IMG/VR virus record: IMGVR_UViG_2648501149_000017
Direction: 5' to 3' (one strand)
Length of the DNA stretch: 15,337 bases
Origin: a virus
Lineage: Duplodnaviria > Heunggongvirae > Uroviricota > Caudoviricetes
The translations under genes and the position numbers were made by a program. This document shows, piece by piece, positions 1,609-14,358 of the stretch. Below the pieces are notes generated by a model. The model had not been told where the DNA came from. It made no database searches and was given only the letters and a program-made list of their open reading frames with translations. The first letter of the stretch is position 1; each line of letters begins with the position of its first letter.

Positions 1609-2799
1609 ATGATGCTGAATGCCCGCAAGGTTGAAGCTGCGAAAGGAAAAGAGAAGAGCTACAAGCTGTTTGATGGAGGTGGCCTATACCTTCAGGTCGA
1701 ACCTAATGGCTCGCGTTACTGGCGTATGAAATACCGTTTTGCTGGTAAAGAGAAACGATTGTCCTTTGGTGTTTATCCAACAGTCACACTTGCTGATGCC
1801 AGACAAAAACGAGAAGACGCGAAGAAACTACTCGCAGCAGGTGAAGATCCCGGCGAAGTCAAAAAAGCCAAAAAGCAGGCTTTAAATGCAGCGATTGAGA
1901 CACTTAACCCATTCAGAGAAGTGGCGTTAGAGTGGCACAAAATGAAATCACCCAAATGGTCTGAGGGCTATGCTTCCGACATCATTGAGGCATTCGAGAA
2001 AGACATTTTCCCGCATATTGGGCACAGACCTATAGCTGATATTCAGCCCCTTGAACTGCTTGAAGTTCTGAGGTTGATAGAAGCTCGAGGCGCTATGGAG
2101 AAAGCGAAGAAAGTCCGTCAGCGATGCGGTGAAGTTTTTCGCTATGCCATCGTAACGGGTAGGGCAATCTACAATCCGGCACCGGATCTTGCCAGTGCGA
2201 TGCAAGGACATGAAGCAGTCCACTATCCATTCCTCAAAGCCAACGAACTACCGGAGTTCTTTAATGCCCTTAATTCTTATTCAGGAAGTCCAATTGTATT
2301 GTTGGGGGCGCATTTACTTATCCTGACAGGTCTACGAACTGGAGAACTACGAGCAGGTGAGTGGCGAGAGGTGGATTTTGATAATGCGGTGTGGGAGATC
2401 CCAAAAGAACGTATGAAAATGCGTAGGAGCCATATTGTCCCGTTGTCAAAACAAGCATTATCCCATCTCAAAAGTTTGAAAGAACTAACTGGGAACTACC
2501 CGCTGATGTTCCCTGGACGCAACGATCCTAGCAAATTTATGAGTGAAGCAAGCATTAATCAGGTGTTTAAACGTATTGGATATGCAGGGCGTGTTACGGG
2601 GCATGGTTTCAGGCATACGATGAGTACAATCCTACATGAGAAAGGATTTAACAGCGCTTGGATTGAAACCCAGCTTGCTCATTCGGACAAAAACTCTATT
2701 CGTGGAATTTATAACCATGCCCAATATCTCGAAGGGAGAAGAGAAATGATGCAATGGTATGCTAATTATTTATCTGAGCTAATTGGTACTCATAAATGA
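1609..2799 (+). CDS. int: P4-type tyrosine integrase
   Basis: N-terminal arm-binding-type region (KEKSYKLFDGGGLYLQVEPNGSRYWRMKYRFAGKEKRLSFGVYP) and C-terminal catalytic region with HGFRHT and a YNHAQY tyrosine segment. The listed ORF starts at a TTG at 1540; first ATG is at 1609 (tandem ATG ATG), which I take as the start. Confidence 0.92.
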   Translation: MMLNARKVEAAKGKEKSYKLFDGGGLYLQVEPNGSRYWRMKYRFAGKEKRLSFGVYPTVTLADARQKREDAKKLLAAGEDPGEVKKAKKQALNAAIETLNPFREVALEWHKMKSPKWSEGYASDIIEAFEKDIFPHIGHRPIADIQPLELLEVLRLIEARGAMEKAKKVRQRCGEVFRYAIVTGRAIYNPAPDLASAMQGHEAVHYPFLKANELPEFFNALNSYSGSPIVLLGAHLLILTGLRTGELRAGEWREVDFDNAVWEIPKERMKMRRSHIVPLSKQALSHLKSLKELTGNYPLMFPGRNDPSKFMSEASINQVFKRIGYAGRVTGHGFRHTMSTILHEKGFNSAWIETQLAHSDKNSIRGIYNHAQYLEGRREMMQWYANYLSELIGTHK

Positions 2800-3620
2800 A
2801 TATTTTAAAAATTAATAATACTGATTCTCTGCTCAGAGATTACTACCAGTTGGATGAAGCTTCAGAAAAAATTGGTTGTAGTGAAAAGGATATACTCTGG
2901 TTTGCCAGAGAACGAGATGTAGAGCTATGCATGGAATTCCATGATGATGAGTATGATGTTTCATGTGGTTTGAAGATTGATGGTCAAATGGATGAGTTCT
3001 TATCTAATCTGAAATATTTACCACGAGATAGAAATGGCAATATTATGTTGTCAGACTTAAGTTCTATAAGAATCCCTGATGAAGATAATTTAATTGATAA
3101 AAATGGTTTTATTCGATGTTTCATATCCGGTTTATGGGCTGTTGATTATGAATATAAAGATCTGTTAGTTAAGCATGAGGGGCAACCGGATTCTTGGCCT
3201 ATTCATTTTCTACTGGCGGGTACGCCTAATATAAATTGTAAGGTAATTCTTTATGTAAATTATGATGAAAAAGAAAATTATTATCTTTTTGAGGTTTTGT
3301 GGATTACAAAGGTACAGATTCAAAAATTCATTGATATAGTCTTATGCGAACAAAAGCGGATAAAAAACGCCAATAAATATAAATCACAATCTGAGGCGCA
3401 AAAACAAAAACATGCTGTTCCTCGAGCTGAAATACTCATGGCTATTATTTCGCTCTATCATCGTGATATGAGGCTAAGAAGAGAGAGTCCAGCAGCGATA
3501 GCTGATTATCTTTTTCAACATGCCAGTGAGTTCTGGCCTAAGACCGGAGAACCGCCTTTGAGCTATGATACTGTTGTTAGTTTGCTACGTAGTTGCATGA
3601 AAAACATTAAGTTTAACTAA
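2796..3620 (+). CDS. hypothetical protein (AT-rich, unknown function)
   Basis: 274-aa ORF whose ATG overlaps the integrase stop (ATGA), suggesting translational coupling; base composition is visibly more AT-rich than neighbouring core genes. No family recognised. Confidence 0.6.
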   Translation: MNILKINNTDSLLRDYYQLDEASEKIGCSEKDILWFARERDVELCMEFHDDEYDVSCGLKIDGQMDEFLSNLKYLPRDRNGNIMLSDLSSIRIPDEDNLIDKNGFIRCFISGLWAVDYEYKDLLVKHEGQPDSWPIHFLLAGTPNINCKVILYVNYDEKENYYLFEVLWITKVQIQKFIDIVLCEQKRIKNANKYKSQSEAQKQKHAVPRAEILMAIISLYHRDMRLRRESPAAIADYLFQHASEFWPKTGEPPLSYDTVVSLLRSCMKNIKFN

Positions 3621-3745: not shown

Positions 3746-4036
3746 ATGTTATCTAAACATGATAATACTACTTTGCAACGACCTTCAATGGATTCTCTGA
3801 TCGATATGAAGTTTATTACTTCCGATTGTTTATTAAGTGATAAATGGATTTATCGATTGATTTCTCTGAATCGCTTTCCAAAACCTATAAAAATAGGTCG
3901 GATGTCACGATGGCGCGCTGCTGATTATTATAAGTGGCGAGATGGGTTTGAAGAAAACTCAGGTCAACATTTTGAGGGAATGAGAAATAAGGCAAGAGCA
4001 ATTAATAAAGGGAATAGATTATCACCTACTCCCTAA
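3746..4036 (+). CDS. alpA: AlpA-family (prophage CP4-57 regulatory protein-like) HTH transcriptional regulator / excision regulator
   Basis: Motif LLSDKWIYRLISLNRFPKPIKIGRMSRWRAADYYKW resembles the AlpA HTH signature (RFPKP.K.G ... W); RBS ACGGAG upstream. An internal ATG at 3788 is an alternative start. Confidence 0.78.
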   Translation: MLSKHDNTTLQRPSMDSLIDMKFITSDCLLSDKWIYRLISLNRFPKPIKIGRMSRWRAADYYKWRDGFEENSGQHFEGMRNKARAINKGNRLSPTP

Positions 4037-4933: not shown

Positions 4934-5218
4934 ATGAATATTTCAAACGGGCACAACGGTGCTCAGGGCCACACTTTGCCTGAAAAACACAATACCGGTG
5001 CTTTTGCCTATGGGTTGTCAGAGGACAGTTTCGGAAAGCTGACCCGCGCAAGAAATGCCTGCGACATGCTCCAGCTTCTCTTTTCTGAATACCCGTCTCA
5101 GGCCGGAGCACTGGACGCTGGCTGTGCGCATGGTGTCGCCGCGCTGATGGAGTACCTGCTGGCAGATTTGACGGATATTGCACACAGTTGCGCACTGATT
5201 GAAGGAGGTGCCAGATGA
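4934..5218 (+). CDS. hypothetical protein
   Basis: 94-aa ORF with GGAG RBS; stop overlaps the next start (ATGA). No recognisable motif. Confidence 0.55.
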   Translation: MNISNGHNGAQGHTLPEKHNTGAFAYGLSEDSFGKLTRARNACDMLQLLFSEYPSQAGALDAGCAHGVAALMEYLLADLTDIAHSCALIEGGAR

Positions 5219-5598
5219 ACCAGCCGCAGGTTTCCATTTTCCCGGCAGAAATGACCACCGCGCTTTACCGGCGGGCTATTGCTTCAGCATGGCGGCAGAA
5301 AATGCTGAACGAAACTGGCAGTGATCAGTATGGTCCGCACAGCCTGACGGTGGAGCGTATTGAAATGGCCATTGCGCTGCATATCGAGTGCGTACTGATT
5401 AACGAGTACGGCGAAGTGCAGGGCGCCGCTACCGCGCTGGCACTGCTGACTGACATGCTGGAGCCGTCACTGCTGACCGCGCCGCCGGTACTGACCGCGC
5501 GCGGCTGTGAAGTGATGGCGGAGATGTACCGCACGCTTCCGGCGGCCTTTGATGACTTCTGCAGTACCGGTGTGACGTTGTATGAGGGGGAAGTATGA
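5215..5598 (+). CDS. hypothetical protein
   Basis: 127-aa ORF with AGGAGG RBS; translationally coupled on both sides (ATGA overlaps). Confidence 0.6.
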   Translation: MNQPQVSIFPAEMTTALYRRAIASAWRQKMLNETGSDQYGPHSLTVERIEMAIALHIECVLINEYGEVQGAATALALLTDMLEPSLLTAPPVLTARGCEVMAEMYRTLPAAFDDFCSTGVTLYEGEV

Positions 5599-8267
5599 CA
5601 ATACGGACGGTTACGCAGATTTCAGCCGCCGCACGGGGGAAATGGCCTGTTATTCTGCAGATGCTGCGTATTGATGTACCTGAAAACGGCAGGCACGGTC
5701 CCTGCCCGAAATGTGGGGGCAAGGATCGTTTTCGCCTTGATGACCTTGACGGGCGCGGGACGTGGATCTGCAGCCAGTGTGGCAATGGTGACGGTCTGGA
5801 TCTGGTTAAGCTCGTAACCGGTTACAGCGTCAGAAAGGCTGCGCAGGAGGTGGCGCAGGTGCTTAATGTGCCGGATGTGCAGGAACTGCCTGTTAAGCCT
5901 GCCAGACAAAAAGCCCCTAAACGAGACATGGGTCTTACCGTGGCGGCGCTGATGAAAGAGAGCCACACGGGAGAAAGTGCCTATCTGACAGGAAAAGGGT
6001 TCGCCGGATACCCGGCCTCTCTGACCGGAAGCGTGCAGCATATCAGCGGTAAGGATTTTCCTGCCGGTTCCCTGCTGTTACCACTCACGACCAACACCGG
6101 AGCCGTGACCGGTGCACAGCTTATCGCCCCGACGGGTGAAAAAAGCATACTGCCCGGCAGCACGATGAAAGGCGCGTTTGTGTCGCTCAGCCCGTTACCG
6201 TCTGAACCACCGGTACAGGTGGTGATTACCGAAGGTTACGCTACGGCGCTGACGGTAAGCCAGCTCACTGCCGGATGCGTAGTGGCTGCCATATCTGCGG
6301 GCAACCTGCCCAATGTGGCGCAGTCGCTGCGGGCACGCTGGCCTGAGGTAAAAATTATCATCGCCGGTGATAACGATTTTCAGGACGGGGGGGAGAATCC
6401 CGGCAGAGCCTTTGCTGAACGGGCGGCAAAAGCTGTTGGCGGCTGGATGACGCTGCCACCAGGAGAGATTAAGGCTGACTGGAATGACTTTCATCGGGAG
6501 CACGGTATTACCCGTGCCCGTGAAGCCTTTCGCAACGGTCTGGTACTGTGCGGGGAAGGCCGCACGCAACTGCCGCACGGGTTCCGTCTTACCCAGGAAT
6601 ATCTCTGGTATGAAAAGCAGGTACAGCGCAACGGTGAGACGGAGATCCAGAACGTCAAAATATGCAGCCCGCTGCGCGTGACGGCAATTACCTGCGATGC
6701 CGATGGCGGTAACTTCGGACGACTGCTGGAATGGGAAGATACGTGGGGTGAGTGTCGCCGCTGGGCGATGCCAATGGAAATGCTGAGCGGCAGTGGTGAG
6801 GAACTGCGCCGGGTACTGCTGGTTAACGGGCTGTCTTATATCAGCACCACCGGTGAGGCACGCGCACGCCTGATGGAATATATCTCACTGTGTAAACCGG
6901 AACGCCGCGTGACCTGCGTCAGTCGTACTGGCTGGCATGGTCAGGTTTACGTCCTGCAGGATGAGGTCAGCGGTGAAGGTGCAGAGGGTGTCATTCTCCA
7001 GACCACTTCCGTGCAGGGGCGTGATTTCCGCGTGTCGGGCACAACAGAGGAATGGCGGGAGCATGTATCCCGCTACTGTACCGGCAACTCCCGCGTGGCA
7101 TTTGCTGTCAGCCTGGCCTTTGCTGCACCACTGTTACGGCTGGTTGGTATGGACGGCGGCGGCTACCACCTCAAAGGGGAATCGACAGACGGTAAGACCA
7201 CCACCATGAAAGCGGCAACCTCCGTCTGCGGCGGGCCTGACTACTGGCAGACATGGCGGGCCACCGGCAACGCGCTGGAGGGATGCGCCAGCCGCCGTAA
7301 CGATGCCGCCATGATGCTTGATGAGATCCGGGAAGTTGACGGACGCGAGGCAGGCAATATCGCCTACATGCTGGCAAACGGTCAGGGCAAGGGCCGTGCC
7401 GGTACGGACGGTGAGCTGCGTACCCGTAAGCAGTGGCGCCTGTTGTTCTTTTCAACTGGCGAGTTGTCTCTGACCGAACATGCGGCAAAGGCCGGTGAGC
7501 GTACTTTTGCCGGGATGGAAGTCAGGATGATCCAGATCCCCAGCGATTCCGGGAAGTTTGGCGTTTTTGAGGAGCTGCACGGCTTCGACAGCGGCAAGGC
7601 TCTGGCAGAGCATCTTGAATGGGCCACGTCCTGCTACTACGGTTCGCCGTTCCGGGAGTGGCTGAAAGCACTGACCGCTGATCTTAACGGACTAACGGCA
7701 CAGGCAAAATCGCTGATGAAGGAATATGCTGCCGCCCTGACTCCGAAAGATGCAGGCAATCAGGTGGGCCGGGCTGTGAACCGCTTTGCACTGGTGGCGA
7801 TGGCAGGTGAACTGGCAACCCGTCTGGGTATCACCGGCTGGCCTGAGGGTGAAGCACTGCGGGCAACCCGCGTCTGCCTGAACGCATGGCTGAAAGATCG
7901 CGGGCACACCGCCAATCAGGAAGATATCGCCGCACTGGAGCAGGTTCGCAGTTTCTTTACCGCGAATCAGTACAGCCGCTTTGCAGACTGGTATGACGAG
8001 CGCAACCGCCCCGGCAATATGGTGGGCTGGCGCAGGGTGGAGAAAGGCAGTACCGCGCAGGGCACGGAAGCTGTCACTACGTTCTATGTCATGCCGTCCG
8101 GCTGGAAAGAAATCTGCAGGGGATTTGACCCGCGCAAGGTGGCGCGTCTGTGCGCAGATCGTGGATACCTGCTGCCCTCCACTGATGGCAAACTCCAGAC
8201 AACCATTCGCCCGCCAGAGATGAATCCCCGCAGGCTCTATGTCTTCAACAGCGAGGTGCCGGGTTAA
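5595..8267 (+). CDS. P4 alpha-type bifunctional DNA primase / P-loop NTPase (helicase-like)
   Basis: N-terminal zinc ribbon (CPKCGG ... CSQCG), TOPRIM motifs (ITEGYATAL ... IAGDND), then a P-loop domain with Walker A-like GESTDGKTT and Walker B-like MMLDE. Confidence 0.92.
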   Translation: MTIRTVTQISAAARGKWPVILQMLRIDVPENGRHGPCPKCGGKDRFRLDDLDGRGTWICSQCGNGDGLDLVKLVTGYSVRKAAQEVAQVLNVPDVQELPVKPARQKAPKRDMGLTVAALMKESHTGESAYLTGKGFAGYPASLTGSVQHISGKDFPAGSLLLPLTTNTGAVTGAQLIAPTGEKSILPGSTMKGAFVSLSPLPSEPPVQVVITEGYATALTVSQLTAGCVVAAISAGNLPNVAQSLRARWPEVKIIIAGDNDFQDGGENPGRAFAERAAKAVGGWMTLPPGEIKADWNDFHREHGITRAREAFRNGLVLCGEGRTQLPHGFRLTQEYLWYEKQVQRNGETEIQNVKICSPLRVTAITCDADGGNFGRLLEWEDTWGECRRWAMPMEMLSGSGEELRRVLLVNGLSYISTTGEARARLMEYISLCKPERRVTCVSRTGWHGQVYVLQDEVSGEGAEGVILQTTSVQGRDFRVSGTTEEWREHVSRYCTGNSRVAFAVSLAFAAPLLRLVGMDGGGYHLKGESTDGKTTTMKAATSVCGGPDYWQTWRATGNALEGCASRRNDAAMMLDEIREVDGREAGNIAYMLANGQGKGRAGTDGELRTRKQWRLLFFSTGELSLTEHAAKAGERTFAGMEVRMIQIPSDSGKFGVFEELHGFDSGKALAEHLEWATSCYYGSPFREWLKALTADLNGLTAQAKSLMKEYAAALTPKDAGNQVGRAVNRFALVAMAGELATRLGITGWPEGEALRATRVCLNAWLKDRGHTANQEDIAALEQVRSFFTANQYSRFADWYDERNRPGNMVGWRRVEKGSTAQGTEAVTTFYVMPSGWKEICRGFDPRKVARLCADRGYLLPSTDGKLQTTIRPPEMNPRRLYVFNSEVPG

Positions 8268-8293
8268 GGCTTTGCGTGAGTCTTATTTATTAA

Positions 8294-8488
8294 GGGTAAC
8301 AGGTGAAACAGGTGGAACAACCGTATTTTACAGGGCTGAATCTGTTCCACCTTCTGAAATAGTGAGGTGGAACAGATGTAACGCCAGCCAATCCGCTGTT
8401 CCACCTTGTTACCCGCGATGTTCCACCGGTGCAGTGTATATAAATGCTTTATAAAACAAATGGGTAACACATGTTTCACCTGTTACAC
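8294..8488. repeat. Iteron cluster (putative replication origin, P4 ori/crr-like)
   Basis: At least seven copies in both orientations of TGTTCCACC / TGTTTCACC (8302-8310, 8311-8319, 8343-8351, 8366-8374, 8397-8405, 8419-8427, 8472-8480) plus GGGTAACA / TGTTACCC variants (8294-8301, 8407-8414, 8462-8469, 8481-8488), immediately downstream of the primase gene. Confidence 0.7.
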
Positions 8489-8576
8489 CGCATCAGGGAC
8501 ATAAAGCAGACTGAAACAGAGGGCATTTTTATCTGGCTGGCTTTCATAGCCACGTCTGAATAACCGCAAGCGCCCG

Positions 8577-8641
8577 TTGTACCAGCCACCACACACTGAG
8601 CACCGATAGTGTGCTTGTGTCAGCCACGACACAATTGACGT
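8577..8641 (+). promoter_or_regulatory. Psid-like late promoter with two TGT-N12-ACA dyads (Ogr/Delta activator sites)
   Basis: TGT-N12-ACA at 8577-8594 and 8615-8632, centres 38 bp apart, upstream of the sid-like ATG at 8668. Matches the P2/P4 late-promoter architecture as I recall it (sites near -55 and -18), which would put the transcription start near 8641. Confidence 0.5.
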
Positions 8642-8667
8642 AACGAACCAACCCGACAGGAGAAGTC

Positions 8668-9411
8668 ATGAACAACACCGCAGTGAATAACAACCTTTCC
8701 ACTTTTCCGGCTGTAACGCAGCGGGCACTGGAAACCATGAACACAGCCAGAAACGCATGGCTTGAAGCACGTCGTCAGCAGAAAGCGGCAGCGGATAATA
8801 TTGCGACAATCCGCCAGCGTCGCGCTGAAATGGAAGCCACGACGAACACACTGAATGAGGAGTGGCGCACGCTGTTTCGTGAAAGTCAGGGCGTGGTCTC
8901 AAAGGAAATGAAAAAACTGCGCACGGAAATTGCGCTGGGACGAGAAACTCTTGAGGATTTTGATGAGCTGCTGGAGGCTCAGGAAAGCGAAAATGCACTT
9001 TTGCCGCAGAAAGCTGCGGAATTAGCCGGAAAGTATATCCACGCGCATAACATCCTTGTGGATATTCGCGCAAAACAAATCTGGGAAGATTTTATGCAGT
9101 CGCATGGAAAAGCGCTTATTCAGACGCTGAGCCTGCTTAAATCCACAATGGGCCGGGAAGCCAGTGCCGTTGTGGGTGTGGTGAATTCAGTTAATGACCC
9201 GGACACAGTGCTGAAAGACTTTATTCATAAACATATCACCAGACCGGCTCTGGCTAACGATGCGATGCCTGAGCAGGACCCGGTGTTTAAACTGGCGGGA
9301 GTTGCCCCGGATTATGCGGCGCGTCTGGATTTCAGTAATCAACTCTCTCCGGCAGCTATGCATAAAATTAAGGTTCGTCAGGAACTTGCTGAGAAGGAGA
9401 AAGCAGTATGA
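8668..9411 (+). CDS. Sid-like capsid size determination (external scaffold) protein
   Basis: 247 aa, similar in length to P4 Sid; the segment EEWRTLFRESQGVVSKEMKKLRTEI matches my recollection of a conserved Sid region; sits directly upstream of psu-like and delta-like genes. AGGAGA RBS. Confidence 0.65.
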   Translation: MNNTAVNNNLSTFPAVTQRALETMNTARNAWLEARRQQKAAADNIATIRQRRAEMEATTNTLNEEWRTLFRESQGVVSKEMKKLRTEIALGRETLEDFDELLEAQESENALLPQKAAELAGKYIHAHNILVDIRAKQIWEDFMQSHGKALIQTLSLLKSTMGREASAVVGVVNSVNDPDTVLKDFIHKHITRPALANDAMPEQDPVFKLAGVAPDYAARLDFSNQLSPAAMHKIKVRQELAEKEKAV

Positions 9412-9959
9412 CGGCCCGAGGCACGCCTGACCAGGCACTTACCAGTTTTCGGAATGCCCGTATTCTGTGGGCCGGACATAATGAGAGCCGAAAAGCCGTT
9501 GAACAACAGATAACATCTCTCCTCGCTGCCACAGAAAAACCAGCAGATTATGCCCGACAGCTCGAATTACTGCGGGAACGTCTGGATGTGCTGAAATGGC
9601 AAATTAACTGTGCTGCGCGCGAATGCATTTACTCGCAGCATTTACTGATGGAGGCCTGCACAGAAGCCGCTCTCAGCAATTTTATGCAGGCGAATGGGGC
9701 AGCCCTGACATCTGCACTGGCTCCGTTCCTGAAGGGGCGCGGAGGGGTTGACGTTGCGTCCCGTATATTACGCAGTGCTCTGGTTCGCCAGCTGGCAATA
9801 ACACCGCCTGAAATTGCCGGGGATTATCGTGAGATCCTGGATGAATCCGGTTTGATGCCTGACCCCGGGATGATTCGTGATTGCCAGGGTTCTTACACCC
9901 CGGCACAACATCTGCGTTTTCAGCAACGCCTGAATGACATTAACGATATACAGGAGTGA
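9408..9959 (+). CDS. Psu-like polarity suppression protein
   Basis: 183 aa, close to P4 Psu in length; segments ALTSALAPFL and YTPAQ resemble recalled Psu motifs; translationally coupled to the sid-like gene (ATGA overlap). Confidence 0.6.
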   Translation: MTARGTPDQALTSFRNARILWAGHNESRKAVEQQITSLLAATEKPADYARQLELLRERLDVLKWQINCAARECIYSQHLLMEACTEAALSNFMQANGAALTSALAPFLKGRGGVDVASRILRSALVRQLAITPPEIAGDYREILDESGLMPDPGMIRDCQGSYTPAQHLRFQQRLNDINDIQE

Positions 9960-9964
9960 TATTA

Positions 9965-10237
9965 ATGGCACTTAAATGTCCGGAATGCGGTACAGTTGCA
10001 CACGCCAGAACAGCAGCCTATGAAGCTCCGTCAGTTAAACGCTCGTGGTATCAGTGCCAGAATCTGGAATGTTCCTGCACATTTACGGCACTGGAGAGTG
10101 TGGATAAGATAATCATGAAACCCCGGCGCAATGAACAGCTATCAGACAAAGCACAATCCCCGGAAAAACAACAGCAAACGCTCAATCGCTATGGCTCCGC
10201 GTCAAAACTGTCAAGCCGTCAGCAGATTCCTGTCTGA
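9965..10237 (+). CDS. Ogr/Delta-family zinc-finger late transcription activator
   Basis: MALKCPECGTVAHARTAAY ... WYQCQNLECSCTF matches the Ogr signature (C.C.HART ... Y.C.N..C). The listed ORF starts at a GTG at 9956; the ATG at 9965 with AGGAG RBS is the more likely start. Confidence 0.85.
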   Translation: MALKCPECGTVAHARTAAYEAPSVKRSWYQCQNLECSCTFTALESVDKIIMKPRRNEQLSDKAQSPEKQQQTLNRYGSASKLSSRQQIPV

Positions 10238-10257: not shown

Positions 10258-10285
10258 AATCCCGGTCGAGTACCGGGATTTTTAA
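10258..10285 (+). terminator. Rho-independent terminator downstream of the delta-like gene
   Basis: Perfect 9-bp stem AATCCCGGT / ACCGGGATT with 5-nt loop followed by a T-run. Confidence 0.6.
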
Positions 10286-10312
10286 CACCTTTTCCCTGGC
10301 TGGCCTGAGAGC

Positions 10313-10420
10313 GCATGAGTGCATGTCTATGGCGCATGAAAATGCATGAGCCTTATGCACCTTTTTTGAGGCGAAAACCTTTGTGTGGTGGTATCTGAGA
10401 CGATTTATGGCATGCATGAA
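10313..10420. repeat. Cluster of GCATGA(A/G) motifs
   Basis: GCATGA at 10313-10318, 10334-10339, 10343-10348 and 10415-10420, with GCATG variants at 10321-10325 and 10411-10415, in the non-coding stretch between the late genes and the cargo cassette. Confidence 0.4.
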
Positions 10421-10766
10421 AACCAGTCTGTTAAGCGAAGCGGGCAGGCGTGCGGGGCTGCCCGCGATAGCACTGAAATCAACAGGTAAAACTATTTTTT
10501 ATTAGTAGTGTAAACTGGGAGCGAACGGACTCTGTCATGCTGTATCATCCTGTAATGATCAATCTCACTGGTGTCTGTATAGATGTCAACCAGTTTCGAC
10601 GGCTGTGTCTAACTTAAAATTAGAGCTTAATCAAGTTTTTCCTCGAGAATACTTTTAAAAGACAATGAGTTATGAGAAAGTGGAGGCTGTCACGTTGGTC
10701 ATATGTAACACTCCACGTAATCTTAATCGCTTTGTAAATGTTGAAGTTAATTAATAGGGAAAACTG

Positions 10767-11726
10767 ATGCTAACCAGGGCTGAAAATATAAGAAAAATCA
10801 CAAGCTATTTAGCTATTCTCTCAAGAGAGGTTGAGATTAGTGCCTCCCTCAATCTTTTGGATATCAACGTTCAAGCGGAATCTTTTTATAGAGATTTCTT
10901 AAACTTATGTTATGGATATAATTTAAGAAATACCAATAGTGAAGAGCAAAACTACCAAGCAATAGATCTTGCTGATGAAGATCGGAAGATTGCTATACAA
11001 GTAACTTCAACTTCTGACTTGGGAAAAATTAAGAATACAGTTGATGGATTTATAAAAAGTAAGCAATATGAAAAATATGATAGACTAATTGTACTGAATA
11101 TAACTGAAAAGAAAAAGCACAGATTGAAAGAGTATGGAATAGCCGGGTGCTATGTAATTAATATCAAAGATGATGTATGGGATTATAAGGATATAATTAG
11201 AAAGATAAACGATTTGAATGATTGTGATATATCAACAATATGCTCATTTTTGGAACGTAATATTAATACTAAAGCTGCTGATAAACCGCCGAAAGAAGTC
11301 ACAACTATGTTTGCGATGATTGAATTATTGAGTGATGATGCTCACCCATTGGCAGGAAATGGATTTATTGAAGAGCCTAATCCTGAAAATAAAATATATA
11401 AAAGATTTTCAGATTATTCAGAGCGGTTGATTGGCTTATATACTGGGTTAGCTCCATTATATAGTGGGATATTTAAGTCAATAAAAGAACAGAGCGATAT
11501 TGGTATCGTAAGGTACCAAAAGATGAGTTTGTATTTAGAGTCATTTAGTGATAAGGTCTTAAGAAGCCATGGTGGAGATCCTATCTTGGCGCTTAATTAT
11601 TTAAAAGAATATTTTTCTAAACAACTGAGCCAGAGAAATGTAGATTACGATGAAACAGCTATCAAATTTTTCTTAATTGAGAATTTAATTGCATGTAACG
11701 TCTTTCCTAATTCGGAGATTCTTTGA
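10767..11726 (+). CDS. cargo protein with SMEK-like N-terminal domain (putative effector of a three-component ABC-ATPase system)
   Basis: 319 aa, AT-rich; the N-terminal segment LNLLDINVQAESFYRDFLNLCYGYNLRNTN ... QAIDLADEDRKIAIQVTSTS resembles what I recall as the SMEK domain found in conflict systems. AGGGA RBS. Assignment is from memory, not a search. Confidence 0.55.
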   Translation: MLTRAENIRKITSYLAILSREVEISASLNLLDINVQAESFYRDFLNLCYGYNLRNTNSEEQNYQAIDLADEDRKIAIQVTSTSDLGKIKNTVDGFIKSKQYEKYDRLIVLNITEKKKHRLKEYGIAGCYVINIKDDVWDYKDIIRKINDLNDCDISTICSFLERNINTKAADKPPKEVTTMFAMIELLSDDAHPLAGNGFIEEPNPENKIYKRFSDYSERLIGLYTGLAPLYSGIFKSIKEQSDIGIVRYQKMSLYLESFSDKVLRSHGGDPILALNYLKEYFSKQLSQRNVDYDETAIKFFLIENLIACNVFPNSEIL

Positions 11727-11974
11727 TGTTAAGTTTTTTTTCGAAAGATGAGGATTTGACAAAATCCCCTCCTGTTGTAGGGGCTAAAATTCTTAATTTA
11801 TTTGACGAAACAAAAAAAGAAAAAATTAGTATTTTCGATTTAGCAAAAGAATTAAAGAAAAACAACTCTCTAGGAGTGCGTGCAATTTATTTTGGAATGG
11901 TCTTTCTTTATACTCTTGATCTTATCGATTTCGATGAGCCATATGTGATAAATAAAAATGTTAAGAATAAATAA
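11726..11974 (+). CDS. small middle-component protein (about 82 aa) of the three-gene cassette
   Basis: ATG at 11726 overlaps the upstream stop (TGATG); the listed ORF begins at a TTG at 11723. Its 3' end overlaps the ATPase gene by 17 nt. Size and position between effector and ATPase fit an ABC-three-component middle component or a Lamassu LmuC-like protein. Confidence 0.55.
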   Translation: MLSFFSKDEDLTKSPPVVGAKILNLFDETKKEKISIFDLAKELKKNNSLGVRAIYFGMVFLYTLDLIDFDEPYVINKNVKNK

Positions 11975-13673
11975 ACTATATAGCATACCAGAATCTTTTG
12001 AGCCAGTAAGCTTTGATAGTGGCATCAATATCATCTTAGGTGAAAAAGATGTTTCATCTAACAAAACTAATGGAGTGGGTAAAACTCTTTTAATAGAGTT
12101 TATTAATTTTTGTTTATTAAAAGAATTTAAGTCGAGTAGAGTTTCTAAAATTCCTCATTCTGATTTTTCGAAAGACATTTTGATATGCCTTGATTTTAAT
12201 ATTGATAATATTAACATTATATCCCAGCGTTCTATTGGGAAACATAATGAGCCAACACTTGTAATAAATGGAAAAACAATAGAGTTTAGTGGATTAGATG
12301 ATGCGTTATCTCATTTAAGCAATCTTATCTTTAAGAATAGTAAGGGTATACTTCATCCATCATTTAGAGCGATGCTGGGGCCTCTGATACGCGATGAACG
12401 ATCTGAATTTAAATCTATTGTTGAGTGCTTCGACACAAAATTACATATACCTGCTGACTATACTCCTCATCTTTATTTGTTAGGTATTGATATTGCTCCC
12501 TATAAAGAGGCAAAGATTTTACAACGAGAAATAGATGATTTATCAACTACAAAAAATAAAATAAAGAGAGATATTGAATTTCTGACGGGAAAAAAAATTA
12601 GTTCTGCAAAGGCAGAGGTTAATGATCTTAAATCAAAAGTTGAACATATCAGAAACGCTATGGATGCATTTGATAGCGATAGCAGTTATGAACTTATCAA
12701 AGATGAAGTAGAAGAATTAGAAAGTTCTTTAGAAGAGTTGCGGAATAAAAGAACAATACTTAAGTTAGAGCTTTCAAGAATAAATGCTCTCGTTGGTGAA
12801 GTATACATAAATGATGATGAAGTGGTTGAAATTTATAATAAATTTAAAGTTGGATTAGGTGATGCTATCAAAAAAGAACTTAATGATGTTATTTCATTTA
12901 AGAAAAAAATAGATCACTTCCAAAACACTTTGTTAAATACGCGAAAAGAAACATTACTTTCTGAATTGCGTAAGATATCAGATAAGCTATATACAGTAAA
13001 TAGACTTTATAAAGAAAAAGCTAGTGTTTTTGAGCAGGCGGGGGGGTTTAAAAGCCTGAAAATTTTAATAATGACTTATCAGAAAAAGTTAGAGGAGTAT
13101 TCACAGTTATCTTCATTGCTTAAAAAATTTGAAGATTTCGATTCTAAATGGAAAGTTAAGAAGTCAGAACGCTCTTCTATGATAATTTCGTTAGATCTTT
13201 CTATTATGGATAACGAAAAAACGATTGAATCTTTTGAGGAAACCATTTTATCAATCCATGAATATGTTTTTGGAAATAGAAAGTGTTCTTTCGAAATTAA
13301 GGCGACAGAGAAGAAAGAAACTATCTCAATGGATTTAAGAATTGATGATGACGGTAGTCATAGTAATGAGCGAGAAAAGGTTTTCTTTTATGATTTGGCT
13401 CTTTTACTTACAGAAGAAACGTTTCGACGTCACCCTGGATTATTAATTCATGATAATATTTTTGATGTGGATCAAGATACATTAATTAAAAGCTTGAATT
13501 ATTTGGCAGAGAAATCCAGTTGCTTAAATGATGCACAATATATTTTGACGTTAAATAGCGACAAAATTAGTGAAATTGATAAAAGAGATTTGAAACTAGA
13601 TATTAACTTCTATAAGCGAGCTTCGTTAACTAAAATAAATAGATTCCTGGGAAGGCATTATCAAGAAATATAA
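11958..13673 (+). CDS. ABC/SMC-like ATPase (Lamassu LmuB-like / ABC-three-component ATPase)
   Basis: 571 aa; N-terminal head with P-loop (INIILGEKDVSSNKTNGVGKTLLIEF), long charged probable coiled-coil middle (many E/K heptad-like stretches), C-terminal Walker B / D-loop-like LLIHDNIFDVDQD. Confidence 0.65.
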   Translation: MLRINKLYSIPESFEPVSFDSGINIILGEKDVSSNKTNGVGKTLLIEFINFCLLKEFKSSRVSKIPHSDFSKDILICLDFNIDNINIISQRSIGKHNEPTLVINGKTIEFSGLDDALSHLSNLIFKNSKGILHPSFRAMLGPLIRDERSEFKSIVECFDTKLHIPADYTPHLYLLGIDIAPYKEAKILQREIDDLSTTKNKIKRDIEFLTGKKISSAKAEVNDLKSKVEHIRNAMDAFDSDSSYELIKDEVEELESSLEELRNKRTILKLELSRINALVGEVYINDDEVVEIYNKFKVGLGDAIKKELNDVISFKKKIDHFQNTLLNTRKETLLSELRKISDKLYTVNRLYKEKASVFEQAGGFKSLKILIMTYQKKLEEYSQLSSLLKKFEDFDSKWKVKKSERSSMIISLDLSIMDNEKTIESFEETILSIHEYVFGNRKCSFEIKATEKKETISMDLRIDDDGSHSNEREKVFFYDLALLLTEETFRRHPGLLIHDNIFDVDQDTLIKSLNYLAEKSSCLNDAQYILTLNSDKISEIDKRDLKLDINFYKRASLTKINRFLGRHYQEI

Positions 13674-14019: not shown

Positions 14020-14358
14020 GTGAAACTCAATGCCCGTCAAATAGACACTGCCAAGCCAAAAGAGAAGGCTTACAAGTTGGCTGATGGTGGTGGTCTGTAC
14101 CTCCTGGTAAAACCTGGTGGAGGAGAATATTGGCGTCTCAAGTATCGTGTAGCTGGTAAAGAGAAGCTGTTAGCACTAGGTGTGTATCCTGAGGTCACCT
14201 TAGCTGATGCTCCTGCAAAACTTGAAGAAGCTAAAAGAGGTATCTCTGGGGGAATCGATCTGATGGAAGTGAAGCGAGAGGAAAAGATTGCCCGGGAAAC
14301 GCAGTTAAACAACACCTTCAAAGATATTGCCCTTGAGTGGCACAGTAACAAATTATAA
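14020..14358 (+). pseudogene. Truncated P4-type integrase (N-terminal 112 aa only)
   Basis: Translation KLNARQIDTAKPKEKAYKLADGGGLYLLVKPGGGEYWRLKYRVAGKEKLLALGVYPEVTLADA aligns with the N-terminus of the intact integrase at 1609, then stops long before the catalytic domain; preceded by an upstream region resembling that of the intact int (CCCAAGTC, TTTAAAAAC). Confidence 0.8.

Follow-up and report, generated by a model that had tools for sequence, protein, structure and literature searches.

The late promoters of phage P2 lack a −35 consensus, as is well established in the P2 literature. Termed PP, PO, PV and PF, these promoters depend on the activator Ogr, and each carries a site of dyad symmetry about 55 bp before its start (NC_001895). 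The consensus of Ogr-dependent promoters is TGT-N12-ACA (PMC3931495), and Ogr and Delta reciprocally activate the late genes of P2 and P4 (PMC8628076, PMC7552001). In P4 (NC_001609), the promoter Psid heads the sid/psu/delta operon and contains two exact dyads of this pattern, at 9493–9510 and 9531–9548. The P4 promoter PLL, which belongs with the same activator family, has an exact TGT-N12-ACA at 9133–9150, upstream of orf88/vis.

The window, by which is meant the whole stretch of 15,337 nucleotides analysed here, contains an operon of the same three genes preceded by two such dyads. With a probability of about 0.87, this promoter is the counterpart of Psid in a diverged clade of P4-like satellites and is activated by proteins of the Ogr/Delta type. 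It is another copy of a known activator-dependent late promoter type and leaves the understanding of how such promoters work unchanged. What is new is a modest addition: the start-proximal dyad, absent from P2's late promoters, is present in every locus checked, across two lineages of Sid. A survey of P4-like satellites (PMC8628076) makes no mention of promoters.

The satellite prophage and its late operon

The window is E. coli chromosome, in which proA and a tRNA-Thr gene (1369–1444) are followed by a P4-like satellite prophage of about 12 kb, integrated at the tRNA gene and adjoining proA. The gene set of P4-like satellites (integrase, alpha primase-helicase, sid, psu and delta) is co-localised in the window (Table 1), and the RefSeq annotation of an identical locus agrees with this content; judged by its genes, the element is assigned to a diverged clade of P4-like satellite prophages. 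Its promoter region is 100% identical to that of strain VG12A2. Of 5426 complete E. coli genomes, 333 carry promoter variants of at least 90% identity, and 982 carry the P4 type.

Table 1. Features of the satellite prophage and of the promoter region in the window
Feature	Position	Strand	Remarks
P4-type integrase	1540–2799		Gene list of the element
vis/alpA-like excisionase-regulator	3746–4036		PHROG 66 match
icd-like small protein			Encoded in the element
DUF5375 protein	5215–5598		Encoded in the element
Alpha-type primase, Toprim/DUF927	5595–8267		Domain matches
Intergenic space, 400 bp	Between the end of the alpha-like primase (8267) and the sid-like ATG (8668)		Holds both dyads
Distal dyad TGT-N12-ACA	8578–8595	+	TGTACCAGCCACCACACA, exact pattern match; putative primary Ogr/Delta activator site
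Proximal dyad TGT-N12-ACA	8616–8633	+	TGTGTCAGCCACGACACA, exact match; putative second activator site, as in P4 Psid
−10-like hexamer CACAAT	8630–8635	+	Overlaps the 3ʹ half of the proximal dyad
Predicted transcription start zone	8641–8645	+	Distal centre 8586.5 plus P2 spacing of 54.5–58.5 bp
Ribosome-binding site AGGAG of the sid-like gene	8658–8662	+	Read from the sequence; ends 5 nt before ATG 8668
sid-like gene, 247 aa, first of the late operon	8668–9411	+	PHROG 6165 at 8e-93
psu-like gene, 183 aa	9408–9959	+	Pfam Psu at 1e-44
delta-like gene, 90 aa, single Ogr/Delta zinc-finger domain	9965–10237	+	Pfam Ogr_Delta at 1e-15
Stem-loop and T-run, probable intrinsic terminator of sid-psu-delta	10258–10284	+	Nine-pair hairpin, then UUUU(U)
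Cargo region	10767–13673

Several parts of the element lie away from the promoter. After the integrase, an ORF of 274 aa (2796–3620) matches no Pfam, PHROG or PADLOC family; in VG12A2, it is interrupted by an IS1 (L001 2959–3656) that is missing from the window. The cargo, placed between the cos-like region and the point where the element ends, consists of three genes, encoding a SMEK-domain protein (PADLOC Aga_REase-PNTD model, 3e-41), an 83-aa ORF and a DUF2326/AAA protein (PADLOC candidate PDC-M68B, 1e-48), at a position that is a known defence hotspot of P4-like satellites. Just past the satellite, an ORF at 14020–14358 starts with VKLNARQIDTAKPKEKAYKLADGGGLY, which by eye resembles the arm-binding N-terminus of a second P4-type integrase and suggests the remnant of another island in tandem at tRNA-Thr. 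This ORF has no PADLOC match, and RefSeq places a LysR pseudogene fragment there on the opposite strand. An Rfam scan of the whole window returned the tRNA as its sole match, with no P4 CI/C4-type immunity RNA, so the immunity mechanism of this lineage is not evident from known RNA families.

The three genes that the earlier note had assigned to sid, psu and delta are distant homologues of the P4 genes, by PHROG and Pfam matches and by direct comparison with P4. The Sid-like protein, which has 123 homologues across Enterobacterales, is 24% identical to P4 Sid over 226 aa (E 2e-12), and the Psu-like protein is 30% identical to P4 Psu. The delta-like translation, annotated as the same CDS by RefSeq, contains a C-X2-C-X22-C-X4-C motif and shares 47% identity with P2 Ogr (E 7e-17); it is the operon's own candidate activator. 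Unlike the 166-aa Delta of P4, a tandem of two domains, the 90-aa protein has a single domain, which shares 45% identity with the N-terminal domain of P4 Delta and 25% with its C-terminal domain; stoichiometry at the two sites may differ between one- and two-domain proteins.

Gene order is sid-psu-delta in the window but sid-delta-psu in P4, a swap reported in about 20% of P4-like elements (PMC8628076). A delta homologue follows sid in 19 of 19 genome loci. It stands directly after sid, the P4 order, in L004–L008, L010, L012, L013, L017, L018, L020 and L021, and psu lies between the two genes in the window and eight other loci. The same two-dyad promoter is kept with both gene orders. At the other end of the operon, the hairpin at 10258–10284 (−13.8 kcal/mol, z = −2.2) probably closes the transcription unit; a simple terminator scan did not call it.

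A sequence box, ACCTTTTCC(C)TGGCTGGCC, occurs at 10269–10320 of the window, past the delta terminator, and at 9435–9488 of P4 (L002), just upstream of Psid. The same box precedes the distal dyad in L009, L011, L013 and L016–L021, Pantoea/Mixta/Rosenbergiella elements in which it lies just before Psid. In several of these elements, it can fold into a hairpin (CCTTTTCCTGGC/GCCAGAAGAAGG), behind which a T-run extends into the TGT of the distal dyad.

A probable replication region and a cos-like region flank the operon. Directly after the alpha-like primase gene, 8294–8489 holds about ten iterons (GGTGGAACA, GGTGAAACA and GGGTAACA) in both orientations, and the cluster ends about 90 bp before the distal dyad. 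These repeats resemble the type-1 ori/crr repeats of P4 (GGTGAACA), and in P4, too, a GGTG(G)AACA iteron cluster closely precedes Psid; the cluster is probably the origin or cis replication region of the element. The 19-nt P2/P4 cohesive end has no match in the window with up to 4 mismatches. The stretch 10328–10517 aligns to the P4 cos region with a score of 67, attained by 0 of 200 shuffles, with a diverged core at about 10437–10475 (AAGCGGGCAGGCGTGCGGGGCTGCCCGC, against AAGCGGGCGGGCGAGGCGGGGAAAGCACCGC in P4). Since the cos-like sequence differs from the P2/P4 cohesive end, the natural helper, and with it the activator that it supplies, may not be P2; a P2-like phage with a different cos may serve instead.

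The dyad pair and its conservation

The earlier note had reported two exact TGT-N12-ACA dyads whose centres are 38 bp apart, and a pattern search finds both, at 8578–8595 and 8616–8633, with centres at 8586.5 and 8624.5. The TGT of the distal dyad lies 90 nt upstream of the sid-like ATG. The proximal dyad reads TGTGTC-AGCCAC-GACACA, a perfect 6+6 palindrome, and the two dyads are 19-nt direct repeats of each other with 84% identity. Other intergenic regions of the window contain no exact dyad. A third exact match, at 9977–9994 within the delta-like gene, merely encodes the leading Cys pair of the zinc finger (C-P-E-C-G-T) and is almost certainly a coincidence.

A single TGT-N12-ACA is nothing unusual: 6 occur in the window where 3.6 are expected, and 29 of 200 shuffles do as well. 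These counts lend some plausibility to a palindrome pair that arose by chance, and the resemblance of TGTG...CACA to CRP half-sites does the same for host-factor sites near an ordinary constitutive promoter. However, a pair with a spacing of exactly 38 bp, at any place in the window, appears in 0.06% of 5000 Markov shuffles and has an analytic expectation of 0.0013, a probability of about 0.001. The CRP consensus TGTGA-N6-TCACA corresponds to TGT-N10-ACA, whereas the spacing is N12 in both dyads and in all relatives. Moreover, a sigma-70 scan of 8268–8667 detected no −35/−10 promoter. Conservation of the pair across deep divergence, in 156 of 156 loci, effectively refutes chance, and both versions of this explanation are scarcely credible.

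Another idea is that the inverted repeats work as hairpins in RNA or DNA, for instance to terminate or attenuate transcription behind the alpha gene, and the predicted fold does allow a 7-bp stem at dyad 2. The fold energy is nevertheless ordinary (z = +0.46, with 137 of 200 shuffles at least as good), no T-run stands behind the dyads, and among relatives the interiors vary without a stem-preserving pattern beyond TGT and ACA. A hairpin function is thus extremely improbable.

The layout was described in the earlier note as Psid-like, and the DNA upstream of P4 sid bears this out. In both elements, the dyads are 38 bp apart, the distal TGT lies 90 nt before the sid ATG (9583 in P4) and 34 nt separate dyad 2 from that ATG. 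In both, the ATT after dyad 2 completes the hexamer CACAAT, and TAAC stands 7 nt further on, at the presumed start. The geometry relative to the −10-like hexamer, ribosome-binding site and ATG is identical. The surrounding DNA, in contrast, is diverged, with 48 of 113 positions identical when the two are compared without gaps. In a phage collection, neither blastn with the promoter region nor tblastn with the Sid-like protein gave a match, P4 being too diverged. A PLL equivalent was sought upstream of the vis/alpA-like gene (3746), where no exact dyad occurs in the window or in 11 related loci; one-mismatch dyads in the window stand at chance level (80 against 71 expected). TTTAAC...TTAACA, which recurs at about −131 before that gene, was rejected for want of a TGT half-site.

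For conservation, 24 Sid-like proteins were aligned and 158 loci were assembled: 19 from contigs of a one-genome-per-species set, 60 from IMG/VR and 79 from IMG/VR with P4 Sid as the query. The 156 loci with an intact sid 5ʹ end were counted; their Sid proteins are 37–100% identical to that of the window or about 96–100% identical to P4 Sid, forming two lineages. Sources include Escherichia, Shigella, Enterobacter, Citrobacter, Pantoea, Mixta, Rosenbergiella and others, together with the IMG/VR contigs. Absence of the dyads from relatives had been named as grounds for rejecting the promoter; instead, both exact dyads are present in all 156 loci, with a spacing of 38 bp in 148 of them and of 39 bp in the other 8. 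In the two loci without the pair, the sid match starts at residue 113 or 199, the 5ʹ end of the gene being missing.

This constancy is confined to short segments. Among the 53–63 distinct promoter sequences of these loci, the distal dyad has 27 distinct 12-bp interiors and the proximal dyad has 18. Compared in pairs, the sequences are on average 47% identical in the distal interior, 55% in the proximal interior and 40–44% in the flanks and spacer. TGT and ACA are nonetheless constant in both dyads, and the proximal TGT and CACA are invariant in all 53 distinct variants. Constant TGT and ACA around varying interiors are the pattern to be expected if a protein recognises two short half-sites separated by a set distance. 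Additionally, dyad 2 is directly followed by ACAATT, giving the −10-like CACAAT, in every locus and in P4. Part of the conservation of the proximal ACA could reflect the overlapping −10 alone; the proximal TGT half (about −26 to −24) is also invariant and is not explicable in that way. Across the 612 kb of DNA retrieved, 312 of 522 dyads belong to the pairs.

The iteron cluster, 90–280 bp upstream, adjoins the dyads closely enough to raise the idea that they are replication-origin sites for the alpha primase-helicase or another replication protein, rather than promoter elements. However, the dyad sequence is unrelated to the iterons, and the distance from dyad 2 to the sid ATG is held at 30–37 nt (mode 34) in all loci. 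Furthermore, the dyads stay with sid wherever alpha is found. The alpha gene is upstream and co-directional in the window and its clade, whereas it is divergent in P4 and remote or divergent in other clades. Because the position of alpha varies among clades, the dyads are to be counted with the sid operon rather than with the replication region; an origin function is very improbable.

Promoter anatomy and the predicted start

The promoter has no recognisable −35 and a weak −10: no −35 hexamer accompanies CACAAT, which is the only −10 available. The start was predicted from the annotated distances between site centre and mapped start at the four late promoters of the P2 RefSeq record (NC_001895), which are 54.5 bp for PO, 56.5 bp for PP, 55.5 bp for PV and 56.5–58.5 bp for PF. 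Within the resulting zone, the most likely start is A8642 (or A8643), in the conserved TAAC; A8642 lies 7 nt past CACAAT, and its counterpart in P4 is A9557. With +1 at 8642, the distal dyad would span −64 to −47, centred near −55, and the proximal dyad −26 to −9, centred near −17.5 and overlapping the −10.

Work by Julien and Calendar in 1995 reportedly located the Delta-protected sites of P4 Psid near −55 and −18, and the geometry predicted here agrees with those positions. The earlier proposal that both dyads point to one start near 8641 holds if the sites are centred near −55 and −17/−18, and the −55 part of it is borne out by the centre-to-start distances of 54.5–58.5 bp in P2. Position 8641 is itself a predicted start rather than a sequence feature, and the present estimate is 8641–8645.

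Two other arrangements were rejected. If dyad 2 were the −55 site of a more downstream promoter, the start would land inside sid, the N-terminus of which aligns to P4 Sid from residue 12. A leftward promoter sharing the distal dyad, as in P2 PP/PO, would have no leftward gene to serve, and inspection by eye of the minus strand around 8531–8546 showed no −10 conserved in other clades.

The position of the proximal dyad bears on its role. Covering about −26 to −9, it includes the −10 hexamer, and proteins bound over such core-promoter positions usually block polymerase. The dyad could therefore be a negative operator, at which high levels of Delta occupy the −10 site and shut the operon off, so that it would serve autoregulation and not co-activation. 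A brake is plausible for an operon that encodes Delta and is under its control, and the proximal site is missing from the P2 late promoters, whose operons contain no gene for the activator. However, the spacing of 38–39 bp in 156 of 156 loci suggests one stereospecific complex with polymerase. Moreover, the Calendar laboratory reportedly found in 1995–96 that activation is strongest, not weakest, at the P4 promoters with two sites. A negative operator is, on balance, unlikely.

Proposed mechanism and comparison with P2 and P4

If the promoter is indeed a Psid counterpart, its mechanism can be sketched by analogy with P2/P4 biology. With a weak −10 and no −35, RNA polymerase would be unable to use the promoter unaided. 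An Ogr/Delta-type zinc-finger activator, either an Ogr-like protein of the helper or the satellite's own 90-aa Delta-like protein, would bind the distal dyad near −55 and recruit polymerase through the C-terminal domain of the alpha subunit. A second copy of the activator would sit on the proximal dyad near −17/−18, overlapping the −10. Transcription would then run from near A8642 through sid, psu and delta to the terminator near 10258–10284. Because delta lies inside the operon, firing of the promoter would make more activator, a positive feedback. The same protein could also act on the late promoters of the helper, boosting helper late genes.

The least certain step is what the proximal site does. 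Its constant distance from the distal dyad argues for one joint complex, and the position over the −10 leaves room for autorepression. It is possible, though doubtful, that the proximal dyad has a separate control function specific to satellites, being invariant in every sid operon examined and absent from the helper's late promoters. Were this so, the dyad could let satellites respond at lower activator levels and fire before the helper, or it could instead cap expression by autorepression. Either would amount to a distinct two-site mode of the Ogr family that includes binding inside the core promoter.

The proposed mechanism would place the capsid-hijacking genes of a common E. coli lineage (333 of 5426 genomes) behind a helper-responsive, self-amplifying switch of the Psid type. 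If it proves equally general in the rest of the family, the two-dyad layout could provide a compact mark by which to annotate satellite late operons and to predict the helpers able to trigger them.

The promoter differs from those of P2 in its dyads. The P2 sites are imperfect, reading TGT-N12-CCA at PF and PO/PP and TGT-N12-CAA at PV, so that the exact TGT-N12-ACA of the window matches no P2 late-promoter site. Additionally, each P2 late promoter has a single site, without a second dyad 38 bp downstream, whereas the window has two. The activator family is common to both. The small single-domain Ogr-family activators delta of retronphage phiR73, PSP3 Pag and 186 B cross-activate P2/P4 late promoters; by description, with their C-X2-C-X22-C-X4-C motif, they resemble the 90-aa protein of the window. 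The features that mark Psid itself are found together in the window: a TGT-N12-ACA dyad upstream of a late operon, an Ogr/Delta zinc-finger gene in the same element and the trait specific to P4 Psid, a second dyad 38 bp downstream that overlaps the −10.
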